Origin: Candidatus Eremiobacteria bacterium
GTDB lineage: Bacteria; Vulcanimicrobiota; Vulcanimicrobiia; Vulcanimicrobiales; Vulcanimicrobiaceae
DNA length: 64,000 nt
Direction of reading: 5' to 3'
NCBI GenBank assembly: GCA_963737065.1
Contig: CAVTRC010000001.1
Span: forward strand, 608,001 to 672,000
Of this stretch, positions 49,905 through 61,050 are shown piece after piece (position 1 is the stretch's first letter; each line of letters starts with the position of its first letter). The position numbers were made by a program, and so were the translations under genes. The notes beneath the pieces were generated by a model. The model was not told where the DNA came from and searched no databases. It saw only the letters and a program-made list of their open reading frames with translations.

Positions 49905-50594
49905 TCAGCGGCAACGATTGACGAGCGGTTGAACGAGCGCGCGCACTTCCGACTCTTCGACGCCGATTCTATACTGTGTGAGCGCGACGTCGACGGCAAT
50001 GTTTCCGTACGCGTCCGCCGAGATCAAATTACCATACGAGAAGTCTTTCGGAGCGCGGAGCCGCGTTTCACTTGCTTGTGTCGTTTGAACGGTGCGGTCT
50101 TGTTGCGCGTCGGGACGGACCATCGCTGCCATGGGATTCTTGAAGTTTTCAATGTCCGCAAGCTCCTGTGTGTCGGCCGTCCCCGAAAACTCGTTCAGTG
50201 AGTCCGCCTGAAGGTCCGCAACCACCGATAGCCGCGCACCGAGCGAAGCAACTTCGTGCGCTTCTTGAGGATCCTTGAGCGCGACGGTTGCGAGTTTTTC
50301 GAGCAGCGCATGGATCTTGATGTTGTTTGCGGCTACGTCGTCGACGACGTCCAAAAGGTGCACGTTATCCGCTTCAACCCATCCGTCGCTCTGCGCGACG
50401 TCCATTTTGGCCATGTCTTGTAAGAGCTCGCGCCCTCGGTCGATCATGCCGTCCTGAATAAAAAGGCCTTGGATCGACGGCGCGACGATCGTGCGCACGG
50501 CATTGCACAGTACCGACGTTTTCGTCGTCACGATGATCGGCAGCGGAGTCGCCGGCGCGGCGGGAACGACTACGGCAAGTAGTAACGCGAGCAT
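49905..50594 (-). CDS. Hypothetical exported helical protein
   Basis: GAGGGA RBS before MLALLLAVVVPAAPA; Cys near each end. Confidence 0.6.
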   Translation of the reverse strand: MLALLLAVVVPAAPATPLPIIVTTKTSVLCNAVRTIVAPSIQGLFIQDGMIDRGRELLQDMAKMDVAQSDGWVEADNVHLLDVVDDVAANNIKIHALLEKLATVALKDPQEAHEVASLGARLSVVADLQADSLNEFSGTADTQELADIENFKNPMAAMVRPDAQQDRTVQTTQASETRLRAPKDFSYGNLISADAYGNIAVDVALTQYRIGVEESEVRALVQPLVNRCR

Positions 50595-50756
50595 CGTACT
50601 TCCCTCATATGATTGCGCTGCTCTGCGCGAACGCTTCGCGATTGCGCTCGGTGACGCGTGATAGGTACCATGCCGGGGTTTTGCTCGTGGCGCGTAACAC
50701 GTCAACGGCTCCCGCGAAAGTCACCTGTGTAAAGAGTCCGTAAACTATTAGGACCA

Positions 50757-50859: not shown

Positions 50860-51012
50860 ATGCAAGACGCCCCTGACGACATGTGCGTTATCGAAGAATG
50901 GATGCTCGAACTCCTTGAAGACGATCGTCCGATCGAGTATGCCTTCAGGCCGAAACAGGTCAGCGACGGATTACATTGGATGTATCGCGCGTCGCTCATC
51001 CGGCACAACTAA
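50860..51012 (+). CDS. Small hypothetical protein (50 aa) MQDAPDDMCVIEEWMLELLEDDRPIEYAFRPKQVSDGLHWMYRASLIRHN
   Basis: Strong GAGGAG RBS 8 nt before ATG; below the ORF-track length cut-off. Confidence 0.55.
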   Translation: MQDAPDDMCVIEEWMLELLEDDRPIEYAFRPKQVSDGLHWMYRASLIRHN

Positions 51013-51230: not shown

Positions 51231-51713
51231 ATGTATTGGTACTGCCGGGCATTTCTTTTGTCTTTTTTTGCAATCGTCGGCACGACGGCGGCGATGGCGG
51301 CCGCACCGAACGTCACGCTGCGGCTCGACGCCGCACTCGTTCACGTCGTAAACGGCAAGGTGACGACATCGGCTGTCGATCGTCCGCTCAAGGCCGGTGA
51401 CGTGATCGAATATCGCATCGTTGCGCGTAATGCCGGCAATGCCTCGGCGTTGGCGTTTTCGCCCCTAGGGAAAGTTCCCGCGCATACCGAGTTTTTGCAA
51501 AATGAAGGCGCGAGTCGCGCGGCGCGCGCTTCATATACGCTCGATGGAACGCATTGGTCGGAACATCCCATGGTCCGTGCAGTGAAATCGTCGGGACACG
51601 TCGTTATGGAACCGGCGCCGCGCTCGCTCTATCGCGCGGTGCGATGGACGCTCTCGGGCGCGCTCGTGCCGTCGCAAACGGCGACGTTCGCGTATGAAGT
51701 GCGCGTGCAATGA
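51231..51713 (+). CDS. Small exported DUF11-like single-domain protein (putative chaperone/cap of a fibre system)
   Basis: Signal peptide; KAGDVIEYRIVARNAG...PLGKVPAHTEF...VRW...TFAYEVRVQ*. Confidence 0.8.
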   Translation: MYWYCRAFLLSFFAIVGTTAAMAAAPNVTLRLDAALVHVVNGKVTTSAVDRPLKAGDVIEYRIVARNAGNASALAFSPLGKVPAHTEFLQNEGASRAARASYTLDGTHWSEHPMVRAVKSSGHVVMEPAPRSLYRAVRWTLSGALVPSQTATFAYEVRVQ

Positions 51714-54187
51714 AACTCCACCGGTCTCTTGCGGCGGCGGGCGCGTTTGCGCTCGCCGTTCAACTCACGTCGCCGCTCACGGTTAATGCCGCGAACGGCC
51801 ACGACGACCCCGGAACGCAGGTGACGAACACCGCGAACGCAGTCTATAAAGACGCCGGCGGAAACTCGTACACCACCACCTCCAATACGGTAACGGTGAC
51901 GGTGCAAAACGCGCCGACTCTAACGAATACGCCGGGCACCGGTTCCCCGTATGCGCCGGGACAGGTCGTAACCGACACGTTCGTGCTCACGAACACCGGT
52001 AACGGCGCGGGCACGTTCCAAGTCTCCGATACGTCATCCGCGCCTACGGCGAGCTCCGATGCGGTGCTCGGCGGAAGCGATGCGGCAGCGGCGACGCTCG
52101 GCAACGGCGCGGCGACGTGCACGACACCCGCCGGCTCGCAATCGGCGCCGTGCAAATACGCGGCGACGGTCGGCGGCACGACATACTATTTCACGAGCCT
52201 CAATGGAACGAGCGACAACAACTCGCTCGACTATTGGCTACTCCACACGAATCCGGCGACCGCCGCAGGTTCGTCGATCACCGTCTCCGTGTACTACGCG
52301 CTCGCGACGAGTGCTTCGACGCCCGCGACGGTAACATCGAGCATCTACGCATCGGTGGCGTATCCTGCCGCAGGCAGTGCGCCTGCTACGACGTCGTCCT
52401 CTGTCAACGCAACGGAGTCGAATACCGTTACCGCGGACGCGCGCCTCGACTTGTACAAGGCGAGCAGTCAGAATCCGGCGACCGGCGACATCACGTACAC
52501 GGTCTCTGCGCACAACGGAGGCGCGTTTGCCGCGAAGGATCTGCAATCGGTGAAAGCGCTGCTCGGCAGTGCGACTGCGGGCGTGCTGATCTCCGACAAG
52601 GTTCCGCAGTTCGGTGGGTCGCCGCTTTCGCTCAGCAATTCGGGCACGGTCACCGTTACGCCGAACGCGACGTATGGATTTGCGACCGGCGCGACGGCCG
52701 ACCTGTATTACTCGACGTCGGCAACCGGTACGACTAGCTGGACGAAAGCGACAGGAAATCTTCCGACGGACGGCAGCGTAACCTACGTTGCAATCTTCAT
52801 TCACGGTGGGACCTGCACGAGCGCCGGATACGAGCTGTGCGCGGACACCGGTCATGCGACGACGCCCGGTAACAGCAACGTTGCCTCCGCTGCGGCGATT
52901 GCGTTCTCGTTCACGGTCGTTCAGCCGAGTGGGCCCGGATCGGCCAACGCGAACGCAGTCAAAAACCTCGCGAACGGTGTCATCGGCGACAACCAGTCGA
53001 CGGAGCACATACTCGGACCGGGCATTCCGGGCGGAACGGCCGATACGCCATCGGCGACGCCCATCACAACGAGCGGTCAAGGCATAAACAACACCACGAA
53101 CACCTCGACGAACGGCGCGTCCAATCAGATCGGAAATCAAGCCCTTGCGTCGTACGCGCCGCAAAACGGTCCGTTCGGACAACCGGCCGCCGTTGGGTCG
53201 TATGACGGCGTCGTCGGATCGAATGGATCCAACGATTTCACAGCGTTTCCTTTCGGTCTCGCGGGCGATAGCGTCGTTAATACGAGTACGACGGTGGGAT
53301 CACCGGTAACCGCGGCAACGCTGGGCTCCGCGCAAACGATCTGCGTCGCGCATACGCTCAAAAACAACGGGAATCACGACGACTCGTTCAACATCGTCGC
53401 CACCGTTCCAACGGCATACCAGGTTCCGTCGACCAGCGGTGGAACTGCGGTCGCCGGCTGGAAGACCGGCGTTTATTCCGATGCGGCGTGCAGCGCCGCG
53501 CTCGGCGGATCGACCGACGGATCGCCGGCGGCGACCGCATCGAACGTTGCGATCGCCTCGGGCAACTCGCTCAACTATTACGTGAAATACGTCATTCCAG
53601 CGGGAGTGAAGTACTTCTACCGCTTTGACGCTTCGATCGTTGCGACCAGTGTCGGCAGCGGTTCGCAAAGCGACTCGACGCACGATGAACTTTACTCGGG
53701 ATTCGTCGCGCTCACGAAATCGCAGAATGTCACGAGCAACGGTTGCCCTTCGGGTGTGTCGCCGTCGTATGCAGCCGGCACCGTCTGTCCGACCGGCGTG
53801 ATCGCCTACACGGTCGACTATCGCAACCTCGTGATGGGCACGAGCAGCACCAACATCTCGTTCAACGCGTGCACGACGCAAGCGGGATCGTTGCAGATAA
53901 CGGATGACGGCACGCTCTCGACATCCAGCTCGACGACCACCGTCGCCAATTGGGCATCGTTTGCATCAATGACGGCCGCTCCGTCGGACTCGAGCGCCTC
54001 GTCGTCGTTCACGTACGCCACCGGCGTTCCCGCGGCCGGCGCAAGCCCGACGTGGAGTGCGGCGGCGACGAAGTTTGTCGACACGGTCGGTGGCTCGTCG
54101 TTCCAACTCGTTCCAAAAAACTACAGCGGTCCGTCGGCAACGCAAGGCAATCAGGGGACGGTGACGTTCTCCATCGCGGTGAAGTAA
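51710..54187 (+). CDS. Large exported Ser/Thr/Gly-rich multi-Ig/DUF11-like protein (putative major fibre subunit)
   Basis: Signal peptide, N-terminal PGTQVTNTANAVYKD...SNTV hairpin, Ig-like repeats (LTNTGN, LKNNGN), C-terminal LTK...YTVDYRN...ITDDG...VTFSIAVK. Confidence 0.8.
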   Translation: MKLHRSLAAAGAFALAVQLTSPLTVNAANGHDDPGTQVTNTANAVYKDAGGNSYTTTSNTVTVTVQNAPTLTNTPGTGSPYAPGQVVTDTFVLTNTGNGAGTFQVSDTSSAPTASSDAVLGGSDAAAATLGNGAATCTTPAGSQSAPCKYAATVGGTTYYFTSLNGTSDNNSLDYWLLHTNPATAAGSSITVSVYYALATSASTPATVTSSIYASVAYPAAGSAPATTSSSVNATESNTVTADARLDLYKASSQNPATGDITYTVSAHNGGAFAAKDLQSVKALLGSATAGVLISDKVPQFGGSPLSLSNSGTVTVTPNATYGFATGATADLYYSTSATGTTSWTKATGNLPTDGSVTYVAIFIHGGTCTSAGYELCADTGHATTPGNSNVASAAAIAFSFTVVQPSGPGSANANAVKNLANGVIGDNQSTEHILGPGIPGGTADTPSATPITTSGQGINNTTNTSTNGASNQIGNQALASYAPQNGPFGQPAAVGSYDGVVGSNGSNDFTAFPFGLAGDSVVNTSTTVGSPVTAATLGSAQTICVAHTLKNNGNHDDSFNIVATVPTAYQVPSTSGGTAVAGWKTGVYSDAACSAALGGSTDGSPAATASNVAIASGNSLNYYVKYVIPAGVKYFYRFDASIVATSVGSGSQSDSTHDELYSGFVALTKSQNVTSNGCPSGVSPSYAAGTVCPTGVIAYTVDYRNLVMGTSSTNISFNACTTQAGSLQITDDGTLSTSSSTTTVANWASFASMTAAPSDSSASSSFTYATGVPAAGASPTWSAAATKFVDTVGGSSFQLVPKNYSGPSATQGNQGTVTFSIAVK

Positions 54188-54191
54188 CGAC

Positions 54192-56297
54192 GTGAACCGC
54201 TTCGGTTGGATCGCGGCGATCGTGCTGTGCGCTCTTGCAGCACAGCACGTCGCCGCGTCCCCGACCGGCGGAACGAGCATCGTGAACGAAGCGTCCGCAA
54301 CGTATAGCGATGTCTTCTCGCACGCCTATCAGACCACTTCCAATGCGATCGTCTCGCAAGTCGTGAGCCTCTCGTCGCTCGTCGTCTCGCCGAAACAAAA
54401 TGCGGCGGCACCGGCGTCGGATACGGTTGCGGTGAACGCATCCGCCACGCGCGTCTTCACGATCACCAACACATCGAACATCACCGACGCGTATCGCATC
54501 ACGAGTCTCCAGACGGGGCCACTCGGCGTTACGTCGATTGCATGGATCACACCGCCGGGATCGCTCGCCACGGCGGTCAACGGGAGTGCATCGCCCCAGA
54601 TCGGGCCCGGTTCATCGATCTCCGTTCGCGTGACGCTTTCTACGAGCGGACTCAACGTCGGCCAGTCGGTTCCGATCGCGCTCACCGCGCAGACGACGGT
54701 GACGCAGACCGGAAACGGTCTCGCGCACGATAGCGGTATGGAATGGGTGATCGGTGCGACGGGCCCGCACTTTTCGGGGCCGGCCGGTGCAAACACCACC
54801 GTCCTGAAGACCGTAAATAATGCGAGGCAGGTACAGACCCAACCGGGCGCAACCGTGACATTTCACATTGCTGCACTCAATAGCGGCGGCGCCGCGGCGA
54901 CGAACGTGCAGATCAGCGATCCGGTACCGGCGGGGTTGCGGGTTGATCTGTCATCGGCAGAGTTGAACGGTCAACCCGCGGGCGCGCAAGCGTCACTGAG
55001 CGGAAACACAATCGTGTTTCGCGTTCCGTCGATCGGCGCCCAGCAAAGCGTCGATGCGACGTTCAACGCGATCCTTCCGCCGGGAGAATCGCTCGGCGAG
55101 TCCTTCGTGAACGTCGCGACGACAGCCGCAGACGGCATTCCCGCAACCGCAACGACTCCCGCCGATGTTTTTTCTGGTTCATCGAACATCGTCTTCGATG
55201 GTTTTGCGGGTGCTGGACATCCGATCGCCGGCGCGGTTATCGCGCTGCTCGATGCGAACGGGAAACCGGTCGGAATCAACGCGCCGAATCCGTCGGTTAC
55301 CGGACCGGACGGCAAGTACGCGCTCCCGCTTTCAGTTCAACTGATTCCCGCAGCGGGCGCGCATTTTACGCTGACGATTTCGGCACCGTCGTATCTAAAC
55401 CGGCGCATCACCCTGGTGATTACGCCCACCGCGAACGGGTTCTACAACGTCTCCGAAACATCGGCTGACGCGCAACCGATCGCGGCGGCCGGCGGCTTCA
55501 CCCTCACGATGAACAACGTTCATCTTCAAGACGTCTTCGGGCTGTTCGGCAACCTGCCGCTCTTCGCGCTCAGAACGATCTCCGTCACGAAGACGTCCGA
55601 CAAACAAGCGGCGTCTGCGGGGGACCGGGTGATCTTCACACTCGGTCTGCAAAATCAAACGACGTTTGGAATCGCGAACGTTCGTGTCGTCGATACGATG
55701 CAAGCCGGATTTGCGTATCTGAACGGAACGGCGAGAGTTGACGGGCTTCCACTCGAACCGCTGGTATCTGGACGCACGCTTTCGTGGGTCTTTTCATCGA
55801 TTGCACCGGCGCAGATGCACACGATCACCTATGGCGCAACGATCGTGCCCGGCGTTGCTGCGGGAAGTACCCTTGCGAACAGCGTTTCGGTGAACGGCAG
55901 CGCGGCGATCGGCGGCGTGAATACCGGCGCTTCCGCAAGTACGAGCGTGATGGTCATCGACGGCGTGCTTTCCATGCGCCGCGTCGTGACCGGTAGAGTA
56001 TTCTTCGACGACGCGCATCGCGGTTATTTCGTGCGCGGCGACCGCGCGATCTCCAGCGTTCGCGTCGTCCTTGAAGACGGTTCGTTCGCGATCACCGATT
56101 CCGGCGGCGCGTTTTCGTTTCCGTCCGTTCGCCCCGGATTGCATGTCGTGCGAATCGATCCGCTGACGTTGCCGGCGTCCGCGCGCGCACAGAGTGATGC
56201 GCCGATGAATTCCAGTCGCTCGTACGAGCAGCTATTGCACGGCGTGCTCGACGACGGAACGATGGAAGACGTCGAATTTGCGGTGGCACCGCGATGA
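54192..56297 (+). CDS. Exported protein with two DUF11 domains and a C-terminal SdrD-B/Cna-B-like domain (putative base/adaptor)
   Basis: GGTSIVNEASATYSD...SNAI; LKTV..PGATVTF...SDPVPAG; VTKTSD..AGDRVIF...VDTM; GRVFFDD...TDSGGAFSF...PG. Confidence 0.8.
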   Translation: MNRFGWIAAIVLCALAAQHVAASPTGGTSIVNEASATYSDVFSHAYQTTSNAIVSQVVSLSSLVVSPKQNAAAPASDTVAVNASATRVFTITNTSNITDAYRITSLQTGPLGVTSIAWITPPGSLATAVNGSASPQIGPGSSISVRVTLSTSGLNVGQSVPIALTAQTTVTQTGNGLAHDSGMEWVIGATGPHFSGPAGANTTVLKTVNNARQVQTQPGATVTFHIAALNSGGAAATNVQISDPVPAGLRVDLSSAELNGQPAGAQASLSGNTIVFRVPSIGAQQSVDATFNAILPPGESLGESFVNVATTAADGIPATATTPADVFSGSSNIVFDGFAGAGHPIAGAVIALLDANGKPVGINAPNPSVTGPDGKYALPLSVQLIPAAGAHFTLTISAPSYLNRRITLVITPTANGFYNVSETSADAQPIAAAGGFTLTMNNVHLQDVFGLFGNLPLFALRTISVTKTSDKQAASAGDRVIFTLGLQNQTTFGIANVRVVDTMQAGFAYLNGTARVDGLPLEPLVSGRTLSWVFSSIAPAQMHTITYGATIVPGVAAGSTLANSVSVNGSAAIGGVNTGASASTSVMVIDGVLSMRRVVTGRVFFDDAHRGYFVRGDRAISSVRVVLEDGSFAITDSGGAFSFPSVRPGLHVVRIDPLTLPASARAQSDAPMNSSRSYEQLLHGVLDDGTMEDVEFAVAPR

Positions 56298-59200
56298 AGC
56301 GGTTGGGAAGAGCGTTGCAGTGTGCGGGCGCCGCGCTTATGGTCGCGTCGTTTATGACGTCGATGACGACCCGCGTTTCCGATGCCGATACGGCGGCCGG
56401 CGCGGCGACGGCAACGTTCGTCGCGCCGAACCCGGGCAGCGCTGCGCCGATCGGCGCAACCAACGTCATCATCTCGACCCAACTCGGCAGTTCGATCGAG
56501 TTGCTCGACGACGGCGAACTCGTCGACGGAAAGCACCTCGGTAAGCGAACGTTCAACAAATCGACCGGCGAGGCGCAATGGTTTTTCTACGGCGTCACAT
56601 TGCACCCGGGACCGAACGAACTCGTCGCGACCGCGCTCCGCGCGCCCGGGTTACGTGGAACGCCGGCGACATTGACCGTCTATGGACCCGGTGACGCGCA
56701 GACAATTCGCGCGGAGTTCGGATCGCATTTACGTGCCGATGGAAAAACGATCGCTCCGCTCAATATTACGGTCAGCGACCGGTACGGCAATGCTGCGGCG
56801 CCCGCGCAACGTGTGGACGTGCGAATTTTGCGCGGAAACGTAACCTTCGGCGATCTGCCGAAAGACGGTACGAACGCCGCACCGGCGTCGCCGGACGTTC
56901 TCACTTCGCCCGCGCCGCAGGGCGCGCTTTCCGCGCAAGTGCCGCTTCCCGTCGGTGGATATCTGTCGCTTCCCGTCGTGTCGGGAACGCTCGCCGGCGC
57001 ATTCGACATCGAGGTACGCGTCGGCAACGCGTATCTTCGGCGTTCGTTCTACGTCGAGCCATACGTTCGCCCCGCATTCGTTACGGGGCTTGCGTCGGTC
57101 GGCGTCGGCGCCGTCCCGGGTGACGTCGACGGCGACGGTATCGAAGACGGCGGCGGAGCGCGCCGCGAGCGCGCAGCGATTTTCGCAACGGGAGCCGTTG
57201 GACGCACGCTCGTGACCGCCGGCTACGAATCGCAAAACCGTCTGTCGCCCGTTTCGTCTCTCGGTGCGCCGGTCGATTCGCCCAATAGCCGTCCGTATTT
57301 GACGTACGGCGACAGCTCGACGATCGCACAGCCGTATCGCTCGCAAGATCACTTCTACGCGCGCGTGGATCGCGGAAGGTCGAGCGCATTGTGGGGGCAG
57401 TACGTTGCGGACGTCGGGCCACCGGACGTGGGCGGATATCAGCAGCTCTTGAACGGCGCGAAGGTCGATGTGTCGCTCGGTGCGAGCGGACGCGCGCGTG
57501 TAACCGCGTTTACCGCGCGCAATCAGCAAGCGTTCATTTCGACGATTCTTCCGTTGACGGGACTCGCCACGCTTTCCGCACCGCTTCACCCCGACATCGT
57601 CGTCGGCTCGGATCTGCTGCAGTTGGTGACGCTCGACCGCGCGACGGGTTTGATGATTCGAGAGACACCACTCTTGCGAAACGTCGACTACACAATCGAT
57701 TACGCGACGGGCATCCTGCGTTTCATCAACGTACCGCTACCGTACGACCCGCAGTTCAATCCGCAAGTCGTCTCGCTGCAATACGAATACCAGGGGCCGG
57801 GCGTCGCATCACAGACGACCGGTGCGCAGGTCAGCTACGCGCTTTCCCTCGACGGCCGCACGACGGCCCGTGCAGGTTACGTCAACGACGCAACCGGAAC
57901 GCAAAATTTCGCGCTCGTCACACAATCGCTAGCGCGGACATGGGCGAACGGATCGTTTACCGTTTCTCATGCTTCCAGCGCCGGGTTCGTTCCGAGCGCC
58001 GGAAGCTCGACGCAACTGGGCGCGGCGACCGTGGTGCCGCATAACGGCGAAGCGATCTCCGTCGCGCTCGATGAACGGAATGCCACGAATGCCGTTGCGC
58101 TCGGATATCAGTCGACTAGCGCGGGTTATAACGATCCGTTCGGTGGATTCAGCTCGCCCGGAACGCGCGCATATCGTGCGATCTATTCACTCGGCACGGC
58201 GCGTGCCGGTCAACTGCAAATGAACCTCTCGGGTGAAAGTAACACCGGCATCGGAGCGGCAAGCAGCGAGCTCGACGGTGCGGTGACGTACCTGCGCGCC
58301 CTCACGTCCCGCTTGACGATGAGCGCGGGCGTTGCCGAGCATCGCCAAACGATCGGGGCGCAGCCGTCGGCGTCTCCCGCTGCGAACGTCGCATTAGCGA
58401 ATACGCAGCAGACGCAGGCGCAGGCATCCCTCACCTACCGCATGCCGGAGCGTCTCGGCATTTCGGTTTCGGAATCCGACACGCTGCGCGGCAGTGATGC
58501 GGGCTCAACGCAACCGTCTCAGACGCAACTCGAAGCGACGTACGACTTGCCAAAGCGCGGCCGTTTGTTCTTCCGCGAACTTTGGAGCGATCAACCGTCG
58601 GCGACGTTTGCGAATTCAACGGCAAATCTCAATATCGCGTCGGGCTCGACCCATTCGATGCAATTCGGGGTCGAACAGCCGCTCTCGGCGGCAACGACGG
58701 TTAGCTCGCAATACGTCATCGATCAAGTCGCGTCGGGCGTGAATATCTATGCCGCGGCAGGCATTGACGAACGCGTGCATCTCGGCAAAGCAATTGCCGG
58801 AAACTTGACGTTGCAATCGGCAAACGCAGTTGGCGCGGGAGCGGAGGGATTCACCGTTCTCGGTGCCGCGCTCACATACGCGCCGGCGAGCGGGAAGTTT
58901 CGCAGTTCGGTTTCGTATCAAGATCGAACGGGCGCGTCGTCCGGATCGACCGTTTCCGCGGCAATCGCAGGTCATATCAGCGACGCTCTCTCAGCGGTGG
59001 GCTTCATTCAACGCGCATACGGCAACGGGATCAACGCGATCGACGATCGGTTGTCGGTTGCGTATCGTCCGCGCGCCGACGATCGCCTCATCTCACTCTT
59101 CGATTACGAGCGAGGCAACGAGACCGGGCTCGCCGGTGAAGCGGCGAACGTCGCCTCGTTCGAAGAGTTGTTTCGCATGACGCAGACCTTTGAACTCGCC

Positions 59201-59527
59201 GGCCGGTTTGCATACAAATTCGACGGCGGCGGCGAGTACGCGGCGCGCACCGTGCTGTGGTTGGGACGCGCAACGCAGCATGTCGGCTCGCGCGGTGATG
59301 TCGCGCTCGAGGCGCGGACGGCCATCGTTCCGGGCGCGACCGGCGCACGCACGACCGCCGTCGCCGCCGAAGCCGGCGAGACCATTGGGCGCACGGCGCG
59401 CGCCGCGGTTGGTTACAACATCGCCGGAAGCGTCGATCCGTCGCTGCTCGGCGTCCCGCAACGCAAAGGCATCTACATAACCTTCACAACGCTGATCGAT
59501 CGTATCTTCGGGTGGGGAAAACCATGA
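56294..59527 (+). CDS. Large exported protein: Ig-like N-terminal domains plus predicted outer-membrane beta-barrel
   Basis: Signal peptide; LHPGPNEL, LRADG Ig/invasin-like motifs; YGDSS; DYTIDYATG.LRF; long run of amphipathic beta-strands ending KGIYITFT. Confidence 0.75.
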   Translation: MKRLGRALQCAGAALMVASFMTSMTTRVSDADTAAGAATATFVAPNPGSAAPIGATNVIISTQLGSSIELLDDGELVDGKHLGKRTFNKSTGEAQWFFYGVTLHPGPNELVATALRAPGLRGTPATLTVYGPGDAQTIRAEFGSHLRADGKTIAPLNITVSDRYGNAAAPAQRVDVRILRGNVTFGDLPKDGTNAAPASPDVLTSPAPQGALSAQVPLPVGGYLSLPVVSGTLAGAFDIEVRVGNAYLRRSFYVEPYVRPAFVTGLASVGVGAVPGDVDGDGIEDGGGARRERAAIFATGAVGRTLVTAGYESQNRLSPVSSLGAPVDSPNSRPYLTYGDSSTIAQPYRSQDHFYARVDRGRSSALWGQYVADVGPPDVGGYQQLLNGAKVDVSLGASGRARVTAFTARNQQAFISTILPLTGLATLSAPLHPDIVVGSDLLQLVTLDRATGLMIRETPLLRNVDYTIDYATGILRFINVPLPYDPQFNPQVVSLQYEYQGPGVASQTTGAQVSYALSLDGRTTARAGYVNDATGTQNFALVTQSLARTWANGSFTVSHASSAGFVPSAGSSTQLGAATVVPHNGEAISVALDERNATNAVALGYQSTSAGYNDPFGGFSSPGTRAYRAIYSLGTARAGQLQMNLSGESNTGIGAASSELDGAVTYLRALTSRLTMSAGVAEHRQTIGAQPSASPAANVALANTQQTQAQASLTYRMPERLGISVSESDTLRGSDAGSTQPSQTQLEATYDLPKRGRLFFRELWSDQPSATFANSTANLNIASGSTHSMQFGVEQPLSAATTVSSQYVIDQVASGVNIYAAAGIDERVHLGKAIAGNLTLQSANAVGAGAEGFTVLGAALTYAPASGKFRSSVSYQDRTGASSGSTVSAAIAGHISDALSAVGFIQRAYGNGINAIDDRLSVAYRPRADDRLISLFDYERGNETGLAGEAANVASFEELFRMTQTFELAGRFAYKFDGGGEYAARTVLWLGRATQHVGSRGDVALEARTAIVPGATGARTTAVAAEAGETIGRTARAAVGYNIAGSVDPSLLGVPQRKGIYITFTTLIDRIFGWGKP

Positions 59528-61050
59528 CGCGGCTATTGATGCGTCTCGTGGTCGCGGCGGCGTTCGCGATCGTGACGTGCGCGTTTGCGAGCGCCTCGAC
59601 GATCATGGTCTTGAGCGACAGCGCGGGCGTCTATTTGATCGATTCCGCGACCGGCAAAGTCGTTCAGTCGTACGGCAACCTCTTCTCCGGAAGCAGCGCG
59701 CAGGACGTCGCTGAAGACCTCAACGGCAACCTGTACGTGACCGATAGCTCCGGCAACCTCCGAAAGGCGACGTTCAACGCGAACGCCGGATCGTCGACCG
59801 GCGCGTATGCCGCGGCGACCGTCGTCGGCGCGATCCCCGGATATACTTCCGCGGTTGCGCGTCTTGCGTGGGATCCCACCACGTTGTATTGCGCGACCGG
59901 CTGCCTCGTGACGATGAACAGCAGCGGAAATTCGCTCGATTGGATCAATCCGGCGACGGCCGCCATCGTAAAAAGCGTCGCGGTGAGTCCGGCCATCTCG
60001 GGTGGCGGCGACCTTGTCATCGACCCCACTGCGGTGAACAACGCGGCCGTCTACGTCGTCTCCGGAAAAGCGTTTTACAGCGTCAATCCGTCGACGGGCG
60101 CGTCGACCTCGATCGCGACGTTTTCGTGGCCGGGGCTCACGGCGAATCTGACGGGACTTGCGCTCCTGGCGAACGGCGATCTGGTTGGATGCGAACAAAA
60201 AGGCAGCGGAACGGCCTGGACGCTTTGGGAATTCACGACCGCCGGAGCGCTCGTCACGAGCCAAACGGGCATTAGCACCGGAAGCGACGTGGTGAACGAC
60301 CTCGCTTCGGTTCCGGCGACGTTCACGACGTCGAAAACCGGCACCGCGAATGCGGGCCTCGGCGACACGATGATTTATACCGTCACATTGAAGAACACGA
60401 GTTACTTCACCGTGCCGACGGCCGCGATGACCGACCCATATCCTTCGACGATCAGCGTTTTATCGTCGCCGGCGCCGTCGTGCAGTGTTTCCGGCGGCGG
60501 CAGTTGCACCGCGACGCTGAACCCGAGCGCAAGCCCTTCGCCCGACGTTGTCGCAAGCGTTACGAACTTGGCCGCCGGCGCAACCGCCACGATGACGTTC
60601 GAAGGTTCACCGAGCGCGAGTGCGAGCGGGACCGTCTCGAACACGGCAAACTCGAGCGTTCCGTTCGATCCCAACGAGTACGGCGGCTCGACCGCTGCAA
60701 CGAACACCATCAACACAACGATCACGGCGTCCGAATTTGCGAAACAGGTAGCAAACATCACGGAGGGCCTTGCGCCGGGCACGAGCTTGATCGGCAAACC
60801 GGGTGATGTCGTGGAATACACCCTGACGTTCACGAACCGCCGCGGCTTTTCGCTGGCGTCCTTTCAAATCAACGACCCGGTGCCGACGGGAACGACGTAC
60901 GTCGCAAACAGCGCAACGTGCATAAGTCAGCCCGCGGGGCTCACCTGCGCGCCGTCGCAGTCAGGCGGCGTCGTGTCGTTTGTTTACACCGGCACGAGCT
61001 TGGCCGCCAACGGCGTCGTCAGCGCAAAGTTCCGCGTAACGATCAACTAA
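59524..61050 (+). CDS. Exported beta-propeller plus two DUF11 domains (putative tip adhesin)
   Basis: Signal peptide; propeller-like repeats (DVAEDLNGNLYV, GDLVIDP, GLALLANGDL, DLAS); SKTG..GDTMIYTV..TDPYP..VSNTA; AKQV..PGDVVEYTL..NDPVP..KFRVTIN*. Confidence 0.8.
   Translation: MTRLLMRLVVAAAFAIVTCAFASASTIMVLSDSAGVYLIDSATGKVVQSYGNLFSGSSAQDVAEDLNGNLYVTDSSGNLRKATFNANAGSSTGAYAAATVVGAIPGYTSAVARLAWDPTTLYCATGCLVTMNSSGNSLDWINPATAAIVKSVAVSPAISGGGDLVIDPTAVNNAAVYVVSGKAFYSVNPSTGASTSIATFSWPGLTANLTGLALLANGDLVGCEQKGSGTAWTLWEFTTAGALVTSQTGISTGSDVVNDLASVPATFTTSKTGTANAGLGDTMIYTVTLKNTSYFTVPTAAMTDPYPSTISVLSSPAPSCSVSGGGSCTATLNPSASPSPDVVASVTNLAAGATATMTFEGSPSASASGTVSNTANSSVPFDPNEYGGSTAATNTINTTITASEFAKQVANITEGLAPGTSLIGKPGDVVEYTLTFTNRRGFSLASFQINDPVPTGTTYVANSATCISQPAGLTCAPSQSGGVVSFVYTGTSLAANGVVSAKFRVTIN

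Follow-up and report, generated by a model that had tools for sequence, protein, structure and literature searches.

A 64,000-nucleotide stretch of the genome of an uncultured Candidatus Eremiobacteria bacterium from soil (contig CAVTRC010000001.1; this whole stretch is called the window below) contains five consecutive genes, g1 to g5, whose products p160, p825, p701, p1077 and p512 raise a simple question: Why do several of these putatively secreted proteins begin or end in the middle of a domain? Directly after their signal peptides, p825 and p701 display an orphan closing hairpin of a CLIPPER/DUF11 domain (CLIPPER being the new name given to DUF11 in the available text of PMC12617251), and the C-terminal domains of p160, p825 and p512 stop just before such a closing hairpin. 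A preliminary reading of the locus, made from its sequence only (hereafter the sequence-only reading), had noticed both kinds of protein ends and had suggested that the subunits assemble head-to-tail by hairpin donation, with p512 as tip, p825 as shaft and p701 as base at an usher-like outer-membrane barrel, p1077. Having followed up this proposal with profile searches, comparative genomics and structure prediction, we lean towards the view that g1 to g5 encode a modular surface fibre whose joints are CnaA-like CLIPPER/DUF11 domains split between two chains. Such a fibre, carried by a double-membraned cell, could be a pilus or else a fibrillar adhesin made in split form.

Orphan hairpins and truncated domains in a five-gene operon

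All five genes are encoded on the forward strand between positions 51231 and 61050 of the window (Table 1). The start and stop codons of g1/g2, g3/g4 and g4/g5 overlap as ATGA, and g2 and g3 are spaced by 4 nt; judged by these three overlaps and the short spacing, g1 to g5 are a single translationally coupled operon. Each protein has a hydrophobic N-terminus with an A-x-A-type site that looks like a signal peptide by eye, and the N-terminal helices of p825 and p1077 are modeled with low confidence in the AlphaFold2 (AF2) predictions described below. The co-oriented, overlapping or near-abutting arrangement and the five signal peptides noted by the sequence-only reading thus agree with the coordinates, strands and N-termini that we found.

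Table 1. Positions of the operon genes and of the protein parts discussed in the text (nucleotides counted from the first letter of the window; residues counted within each protein).
Feature	Position (nt)	Strand	Residues and remarks	Source
g1, p160	51231-51713	+	160 aa	open reading frame (ORF)
g2, p825	51710-54187	+	825 aa	ORF
g3, p701	54192-56297	+	701 aa	ORF
g4, p1077	56294-59527	+	1077 aa	ORF
g5, p512	59524-61050	+	508 aa from ATG; longest ORF from GTG 59512	ORF
p825, domains		+	D1 66-242; D2 245-480; D3 482-665; then truncated acceptor D4	AF2 model
p825, donor hairpin	51815-51904	+	36-65; Asn40 codon 51827-51829	
p825, acceptor D4	53699-54184	+	664-825; Lys670 codon 53717-53719; Asp732 codon 53903-53905	
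p701, donor hairpin	54267-54365	+	~26-58; Asn32	hairpin profile
p701, further domains		+	202-310 and 463-570, complete isopeptide-type; also CarboxypepD_reg/SdrD_B-like	Pfam, NCBIfam
p1077, Ig domains		+	39-255	AF2 model
p1077, predicted barrel	57077-59497	+	262-1068	AF2 model
p512, complete DUF11 domain		+	277-390 (numbered from GTG 59512)	Pfam, profiles
p512, acceptor	60727-61047	+	406-512 (numbered from GTG 59512)	Pfam, profiles

The relation between the two kinds of protein ends is seen most directly in p512. Its last domain covers positions 15-84 of the 114 positions of the Pfam DUF11 profile, and the protein ends 16 residues further. By eye, this domain can be aligned with the complete one inside p512 as far as the strand that precedes an N-T-A motif; the complete domain then goes on into a hairpin whose homology to the mature N-termini of p825 and p701 is plain. 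Similarly, p825 ends on the strand preceding the missing hairpin. We refer to the N-terminal hairpins as donors and to the truncated C-terminal domains as acceptors. Pfam assigns DUF11 above its cut-off of 24.6 bits to p701 (62.5 bits) and p512 (41 bits), below the cut-off to p160 (16.7 bits) and not at all to p825 or p1077. The earlier description of the subunits as DUF11 proteins therefore holds for p701 and p512, while p825 is DUF11-like by its predicted fold and not by Pfam sequence matching. Taken alone, neither the donor hairpins nor domain D4 of p825 match any Pfam family at E values up to 10.

Profiles built from the two kinds of ends were then informative for the whole genome, which is 95% complete and represented by 13,798 ORFs in these searches. 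The N-terminal-hairpin profile matched only p825 (residues 32-69, 56 bits) and p701 (residues 24-61, 48 bits), and profiles of the truncated C-terminal domains found acceptors only at the ends of p160, p825 and p512. The genome therefore has two donors and three C-terminal acceptors, every one of them inside the g1-g5 operon, and the sequence-only reading had arrived at the same numbers. One further protein with a DUF11-like domain was picked up by the same profiles, a 1,127-aa protein encoded outside the window (G000:C1:1478678-1482061, minus strand); its domain is internal, and it has neither a donor nor a C-terminal acceptor.

We collected related loci in two ways. A profile of the p1077 barrel yielded 49 loci in public genomes, mostly labeled Eremiobacterota/Vulcanimicrobiota (the labels of a few metagenome-assembled genomes differ, and several have no phylum), and a profile of relatives in which the counterparts of g3 and g4 are fused yielded 80 metagenome loci, 76 of them with a barrel ORF. 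Components were classified automatically, and we counted g1 to g3 only in loci with enough upstream DNA and g5 only in those with at least 3 kb downstream. Under these conditions, g1 was found in 32/34 Eremiobacterota and 43/43 metagenome loci, g2 (donor plus C-terminal acceptor) in 30/34 and 38/43, g3 (donor without acceptor) in 30/34 and 39/43, and an acceptor-only g5 on the 3' side of the barrel in 20/37 and 48/48, respectively. Across loci, the p825-type class with both donor and C-terminal acceptor comprises 76 proteins. The second lineage has the gene order g1, g2, fused g3g4, g5, and relatives of its fused proteins bear the source labels Acidobacteriota/Pyrinomonadaceae. The five-part layout thus recurs in a second lineage that is labeled as another phylum, in line with a check that the sequence-only reading had proposed. 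Donor hairpins begin at a median residue of 35, with 1/174 located beyond residue 150 (in an over-extended ORF). The truncated domains and orphan hairpins are neither a product of chance nor an artefact of truncation, since 125 related loci have protein ends of the same kind.

A split isopeptide triad and its predicted docking

CnaA-like domains of the CLIPPER/DUF11 type can unite a Lys, an acidic residue and an Asn, and all three stand together within one chain where p701 and p512 have complete internal domains (by eye). It is because of these domains that we consider the lineage to use Lys-Asp-Asn chemistry. The terminal domains do not contain a full triad: Acceptors have the Lys and the acid without the Asn, and donors have the Asn only. 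This division is strongly conserved. An Asn occupies the column of p825 Asn40 in 168/174 donors, whereas the second Asn of the hairpin is present in only 121/174. Among shaft-type acceptors, which resemble the end of p825, the Lys is found in 98/102 (the remaining 4 are alignment gaps) and an Asp or Glu at the Asp732 column in 100/102; both Lys and Asp are present in 10/10 acceptors of the p512 type. The third type of acceptor has the Asp in 65/67, and its Lys count is uninformative since the Lys column, with gaps at the profile edge, is aligned in only 28/67. Across 27 sequences, the invariant residues of the p825 hairpin are T36, N40, A44, Y46 and D48, and those of D4 are K670 and G734. The donor Asn and the acceptor Lys and acid, whose conservation in homologues had been suggested as a check, have thus been kept. 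Why should domains devoid of an Asn retain the Lys and the acid, and a hairpin devoid of a domain retain the Asn? Without pairing in trans, such retention is hard to explain, and we regard it as the strongest argument for this pairing and for isopeptide chemistry at the joints.

Structure prediction gave a picture that is consistent with this pairing. The AF2 model of p825 (with 27 orthologues in the alignment; mean predicted local distance difference test score, pLDDT, 87.3; predicted template modeling score, pTM, 0.69) shows the hairpin at residues 37-64 (pLDDT 68-74) followed by three immunoglobulin (Ig)-like domains and the acceptor domain. In VIA-align comparisons, the matches of D1 included TTHA1873 (Z 10.2), RrgB (Z 8.9) and the CLIPPER structure 9ifr (Z 8.2; root-mean-square deviation [rmsd] 3.1 over 117 residues), and those of D2 included BcpA (Z 10.1), SpaD, FimA and Cna. 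The modeled D1 and D2 therefore resemble domain types of Gram-positive pilus shafts, and a p825 sequence profile retrieved nothing among the PDB sequences at E values up to 1.

When the D4 region of p825 (residues 650-825) and its hairpin region (residues 31-72) were predicted as a complex of separate chains, the interface score ipSAE reached 0.77, 0.78 and 0.78, whereas none of 3 controls scored above 0.00; the mark for such scores, which is passed by 116/157 solved complexes and 2/215 mismatched pairs, is only a rough guide here since custom alignments were used. The runs agreed in at least 90% of contacts, had a partner pLDDT of at least 76 and showed 121-125 low-error contacts. On the acceptor side, the predicted interface comprises residues 664-672 (with K670), 727-732 (with D732) and 734; on the donor side, it comprises residues 35-52 (with N40) and 56-68. 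As the sequence-only reading had expected for a donor peptide offered to a C-terminal domain, the p825 hairpin is predicted to dock against the strands that bear the Lys and the acid. Together with the conserved donor/acceptor inventory, this makes p825 our candidate shaft subunit.

Candidate parts of the proposed fibre and their probable assembly

If joints are formed by hairpin donation, a protein with an acceptor and no donor can only stand at one end of the chain. Besides its signal peptide, complete DUF11 domain and acceptor, p512 has an N-terminal repeat domain (propeller-like by eye) and no donor hairpin. The g5 proteins of related loci range from 322 to 2,295 aa, and their N-terminal parts are unrelated, followed by a truncated acceptor end and never accompanied by a donor; by eye, 31/33 listed downstream ORFs end in an acceptor, with one of the other two being out-of-frame and one ending differently. 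Because the N-terminal parts of g5 proteins vary, their acceptor end is constant and a donor is never present, the assignment of p512 as a candidate tip, already put forward from its acceptor alone, is supported.

The opposite end would be formed by p701, which has a donor hairpin but no C-terminal acceptor, and whose residues 202-310 are recognized by NCBIfam as an RrgB-type isopeptide domain. Relatives of the barrel were most instructive in this regard. The barrel profile matched 3,290 cluster representatives at E values up to 0.001 and 1,356 at E values up to 1e-30. Among the best 150, 62 are at least 1,400 aa long and have the barrel at their C-terminus with DUF11, SdrD_B and Big_1 domains in front, i.e., they correspond to a fusion of g3 and g4. 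Most of these long relatives (55/62) start with Met, and 27/55 have an N-terminal hairpin according to the profile trained on Eremiobacterota; further fused relatives show the hairpin by eye, some with the Asn replaced. Because relatives fuse a p701-like part to the barrel with the hairpin still in first place, the role of p701 as candidate base or anchor subunit, which had been deduced from its donor-only composition, is supported at the level of sequence. The largest members of the barrel family (~2,900-3,300 aa) have other domains at the N-terminus and resemble versions made as a single chain.

Two side observations concern these anchors. In loci L036, L089, L099, L104, L108 and L120, the Asn of the anchor donors is replaced by Ser, Ile, Val or Ala; the shaft acceptors matched to these donors, where identified, keep the acid, as well as the Lys where its column is readable, and the same acceptors can take g2 hairpins. 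The base joint may be non-covalent in these six loci. Loci L046 and L047 lie ~15 kb apart on the same contig as tandem barrel genes. Each barrel gene is preceded by a gene for a ~2,450-aa protein that has another domain at its start and no N-terminal hairpin, and g1 and g2 are missing from both loci. They resemble a variant of the system, less split or not split at all, within the same phylum.

The barrel protein p1077 was modeled by AF2 with 25 relatives in the alignment (pLDDT 72.4, pTM 0.62), and its part behind two Ig domains is all-beta with ~40 predicted strands. In VIA-align searches, invasin (1cwv) aligned to the Ig domains with Z 13.2 and an rmsd of 1.5 over 93 residues, intimin matched them as well, and the barrel part resembled porins, FadL, FhaC and LptD with Z scores of 10-13; porin and LptD matches at Z 11-13 cover residues 260-1068. 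Several of the porin, FadL and FhaC alignments (Z 10-11) extend over the whole p1077 barrel, first strand and last strand included, as expected of one closed barrel. The predicted structure thus has the characteristics of a generic outer-membrane beta-barrel protein. It has no Pfam family, its barrel profile retrieved nothing among PDB sequences at E values up to 1, and Foldseek comparison of the barrel to the PDB gave weak LptD and MtrB matches (TM 0.15-0.30) besides matches of Ig domains. No usher chain is among the 50 VIA-align matches listed for p1077. Of the original idea of an usher-like barrel, the prediction of a large outer-membrane barrel therefore stands; kinship to PapC does not, and p1077, which is far larger, resembles an usher by analogy only. 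The most conserved stretch of p1077 is not part of the barrel wall but an insert of four strands at residues 436-485 (57599-57748), which supplied search patterns that were effective in both lineages and which could act as a plug or as a docking site for subunits.

The smallest protein, p160, has behind its signal peptide a lone DUF11-like Ig domain without the closing hairpin, with further weak matches to DUF7927 and TIGR01451. The sequence-only reading had assigned it the part of a chaperone. Its fold is truncated in the same way as in the other two acceptors, but neither the Lys nor the Asp is conserved in an alignment of 33 sequences (the one from the window and 32 orthologues). Because it has no conserved Lys or Asp, we infer that p160 is a non-catalytic acceptor that would bind hairpins only reversibly. 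It is encoded by g1, the best-conserved small component in both lineages, and since it is the most conserved small part and encoded first, we prefer, with low confidence, a role as periplasmic holder of donor hairpins over that of a distal cap. A search with the PapD family profile PF00345, confined to the operon proteins, gave no match in p160 at E values up to 0.1.

Taken together, the operon reads as a tandem-domain adhesin that may have been cut inside two domains, with each piece equipped with its own signal peptide. The pieces would cross the inner membrane via Sec, and the giant barrel p1077 would let folded Ig-type domains pass and serve as anchor and probably as export pore. At each joint, the upstream partner would contribute the Lys strand and the catalytic Asp or Glu of a domain that lacks its last beta-hairpin, and the N-terminal hairpin of the next protein would bring the Asn. 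Insertion of the hairpin would complete the fold in the manner of donor-strand complementation, though with two strands, and would align Lys, acid and Asn so that an autocatalytic Lys-Asn isopeptide bond would most likely lock the joint. The resulting order would be tip p512 (acceptor), one or more copies of p825 (donor and acceptor) and base p701 (donor) at p1077. The same final topology would arise by growth at the base, as in chaperone-usher pili, or by capture of hairpins at the distal end, as in the extracellular assembly of curli. Conservation, recurrence and predicted docking all speak in favor of the head-to-tail assembly and the order of parts that had been proposed at the outset, with a polymer and a covalent bond as their probable consequences. 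We are more reserved, and lean slightly against it at present, regarding the wider claim of a new and widespread class of pili that would need no ATP, sortase or usher and instead use hairpin capture, an autocatalytic lock, a single-chain barrel of ~40 strands and p160 as a dead-acceptor chaperone.

Several observations weigh against the split-domain fibre or parts of it. The predicted interface rebuilds the fold of intact CnaA/CLIPPER domains with solved structures, and its score may reflect this likeness; moreover, docking in cis and docking in trans look alike in a prediction from fragments of p825, and both the pTM and the hairpin pLDDT of the p825 monomer are compatible with a hairpin docked onto its own D4. 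Not every joint can be covalent: p160 lacks Lys and Asp, which excludes a bond for at least one type of joint, and 6/174 donors, all of them anchors, lack the Asn. In Eremiobacterota, p701 and p1077 are separate proteins, and the cut between them lies in a linker rather than inside a domain. The model of p1077 is only of middling confidence, and its strands were counted from the DSSP list only. Finally, the distribution is uneven. A g5 gene is missing beside the barrel in 17/37 Eremiobacterota loci; the misses that we inspected among all components look like frameshifted or split ORFs or, for g5, like genes located elsewhere, e.g., p512-like genes lie ~7 kb upstream of g1 in L033, L035, L042 and L050. 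Within the phylum, the system is patchy, with occurrence in 41/201 sampled genomes, 36/171 of good quality and 26/80 genera, and it is present in 0/2 other genomes of the same genus.

Which other arrangements could account for the same proteins? The one closest to our preferred reading is a split adhesin of fixed composition, in which p512 (or p160), a single p825 and p701 would be joined at the barrel without any polymer. The order g1, g2, g3 (and g4) is what one tandem-domain protein would give if two of its domains were cut through, the ~2,900-3,300 aa relatives resemble adhesins made as one chain and share the C-terminal barrel, and two donors and three acceptors can all be satisfied without any joint between two copies of p825. 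Yet the p825 hairpin is predicted with high confidence to fit the type of acceptor that p825 itself carries, the hairpins of g2 and g3 match one profile, nothing visible would bar p825-p825 joints, and the g5 proteins of other loci bear the p825-type acceptor; we therefore judge a fixed composition to be rather unlikely. The same g5 proteins matter for an arrangement in which the p825 hairpin closes its own D4 into a discontinuous or cyclised domain, leaving only p701 to pair with p512 or p160 and no way for a fibre to grow. A pTM of 0.69 is rather high for a protein of four domains, and the pLDDT of the hairpin in the monomer is similar to the 76 of the docked peptide, with the fragment prediction being blind to the difference between cis and trans. 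Nevertheless, because the hairpin abuts D1 without a linker, as at ordinary tandem-domain junctions, such closure would require a closed ring of four domains. Moreover, many loci have acceptor-only proteins that end in a D4 of the p825 type but bring no hairpin themselves, and for these the hairpin must be supplied in trans. As weaker evidence, no VIA match spans residues 37-64 together with 666-825. Closure in cis is improbable in our opinion.

The two remaining alternatives would deny either the joints or the external location of the chain, and we give very little credence to both of them. If there were no complementation at all, the C-terminal domains would be complete Ig folds of a shorter kind, the hairpins would cap the first domains, and the operon would encode independent adhesins plus an outer-membrane protein. 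Some DUF11-like families are indeed compact with seven strands, the triad is not universal in DUF11 according to the accessible text of PMC12617251, and Pfam recognizes neither D4 nor the hairpins by themselves. These points are hard to reconcile with the clear homology of the hairpins (by eye) to the closing hairpin of complete internal domains, with a Lys and acid retained in the absence of a cis Asn and an Asn retained in the absence of a domain, and with a confident interface of more than a hundred low-error contacts for which the controls scored zero. Alternatively, the chain could be a periplasmic tether that links the outer-membrane barrel to the wall or the inner membrane. Terrabacterial diderms use barrel-linked tethers, the ends of beta-barrels are normally periplasmic, the fused forms have the chain on the N-terminal side of the barrel, and one relative has an OmpA peptidoglycan-binding domain. 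On the other hand, the N-terminal parts of g5 proteins are highly variable, adhesin-like and very different in length, as would be expected of exposed tips under diversifying pressure, the patchy and accessory distribution is ill-suited to a role in envelope integrity, and a barrel of ~40 strands is far bigger than an anchor needs to be. A surface fibre joined by split domains remains our preferred reading.

Relation to known surface fibres and genomic setting

How does such a fibre compare to those already described? Chaperone-usher pili such as FimH-FimG-FimF-FimA-FimI with chaperone FimC and usher FimD are built from subunits with an incomplete Ig fold, to which the following subunit contributes the missing part with its N-terminus. 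The usher barrel has 24 strands. These pili share with the system described here an inventory of acceptor-only tip, donor-and-acceptor shaft and donor-only terminator as well as an outer-membrane barrel encoded in the operon. Unlike in these pili, where a single strand fills a groove, a hairpin of two strands would here replace the C-terminal end of a CnaA-like domain, and the joint is probably covalent. In addition, the small conserved protein p160 is an acceptor whereas PapD-like chaperones are strand donors, and the predicted barrel has ~40 strands compared to the 24 of an usher. Donor-strand complementation in chaperone-usher pili is described in the available parts of PMC11821415 and PMC9715654. 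The PapC/FimD-type usher family PF00577 has no match in the 95%-complete genome (the control profile matches E. coli), and neither has sortase family PF04203 (the control profile matches 3 Gram-positive genomes). What the sequence-only reading had said of the neighborhood, i.e., that no sortase or PapC is encoded nearby, can therefore be extended to the whole assembled genome. By eye, we saw no LPXTG motif with hydrophobic tail in the proteins, whose C-termini end on a beta-strand.

The closest precedent for the chemistry of the joint comes from Gram-positive bacteria. BsaA of Clostridium perfringens, a member of the TasA family, polymerizes by "donor-strand exchange and lock" with an acid-catalyzed Lys-Asn isopeptide bond between chains, which is supported by the mutants N35A, K74A and E56A (PMC11580942, as far as its text was available). 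As in BsaA, an N-terminal segment would enter the next subunit and an inter-chain Lys-Asn bond would be formed. Unlike the operon described here, the BsaA system as covered in that text belongs to a bacterium without outer membrane and is a homopolymer of one domain, with no barrel and no inventory of tip and base; it does not split a pre-existing isopeptide domain and belongs to the TasA/camelysin fold family, for which (Peptidase_M73) there is no Pfam match in the five proteins at E values up to 0.1. The archaeal thread protein Saci_0406 combines donor-strand complementation with isopeptide bonds between subunits in a very stable fibre; its bond connects Asn57 to the N-terminal amine of subunit n+2, it has no Pfam domain, and its machinery is reported as unknown in the available text of PMC9715654. 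This system is archaeal, and we detected no homology between it and the operon.

Sortase-assembled pili and CLIPPER/DUF11 adhesins share domain folds with our proteins (RrgB, BcpA, SpaD and CLIPPER 9IFR) as well as the Lys-Asp-Asn chemistry. Their autocatalytic bonds are intramolecular and their subunits are joined by sortase, unlike in the genome studied here, which has none. Split or truncated domains and strand complementation are each mentioned 0 times in the searched text of the CLIPPER survey (PMC12617251). In SpyTag/SpyCatcher, a docking peptide that provides one of the reactive residues forms a spontaneous isopeptide bond between chains (available text of PMC6539128 and PMC8878318). 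That pair is an engineered split of a CnaB-type domain with a Lys-Asp bond, unlike the natural split of CnaA-like domains with Lys-Asn bonds for fibre building that we propose.

Regarding the barrel, fused relatives of p701 and p1077 resemble autotransporters and the intimin/invasin group in having a passenger of Ig repeats and an outer-membrane barrel in one chain. Barrels of type V secretion have 12-16 strands, far from the ~40 predicted for p1077, and no autotransporter or intimin barrel family of Pfam matches p1077. The translocon SprA of the type 9 secretion system (T9SS), with 36 strands, is called the largest known barrel in the accessible part of a preprint (10.64898/2026.03.07.710327). 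The predicted p1077 barrel is comparable to SprA in size or above it, and it would be the larger of the two if the modeled strand count holds; the SprA family TIGR04189 aligns to p1077 with 11.3 bits (cut-off 200) over 24 residues only. In the literature that we searched, which included few subscription journals and no supplements, there was no description of split DUF11/CLIPPER domains, of this barrel family or of such a fibre.

If the proposed assembly is correct, it would be a sixth route to bacterial surface fibres beside chaperone-usher, type IV, type V, curli and sortase pili and provide the first covalent surface fibre of double-membraned bacteria. It would also explain thousands of genes annotated as "DUF11", "SdrD B-like" or "hypothetical" in abundant yet poorly known soil phyla. 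By analogy, the system could be viewed as in effect a natural counterpart of SpyTag/SpyCatcher, and protein engineering might benefit from its putative co-evolved tag/catcher pairs, including p160 as a possible non-covalent "dead catcher". According to its model, p1077 may form a larger outer-membrane pore than any other single chain known, which would bear on the question of how folded, crosslinked domains cross the outer membrane.

The operon is found in a genome that encodes Omp85/BamA (71.5 bits in a profile search), from which we conclude that an outer membrane is present. It is flanked by housekeeping genes, with a MiaB-like radical SAM protein, EngA/Der, PlsY, EF-P and TauE on one side and fumarase, a SprT-like protein and a TPR protein on the other, and the closest proteins and loci are labeled by their sources as Candidatus Aquilonibacter, Baltobacteraceae and Vulcanimicrobiota. 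Two ORFs next to the operon were considered as parts of the system and rejected because relatives of them were found in 0/129 related loci: a divergent ORF of 266 aa (49905-50705, minus strand) that has a hydrophobic N-terminal segment and no Pfam family, and an ORF of 50 aa (50860-51012, plus strand) that has a good ribosome-binding site and lies inside the 526-nt gap on the 5' side of g1.

Some metagenome loci have further genes in their surroundings. In L058, L067, L089 and L106, a gene for a response regulator or NtrC-like activator (by eye) is often found a few kb upstream of the operon, and the operons of the metagenome lineage might thus be under sigma-54 control. In L089, type IV pilin-like genes are located downstream of the operon.

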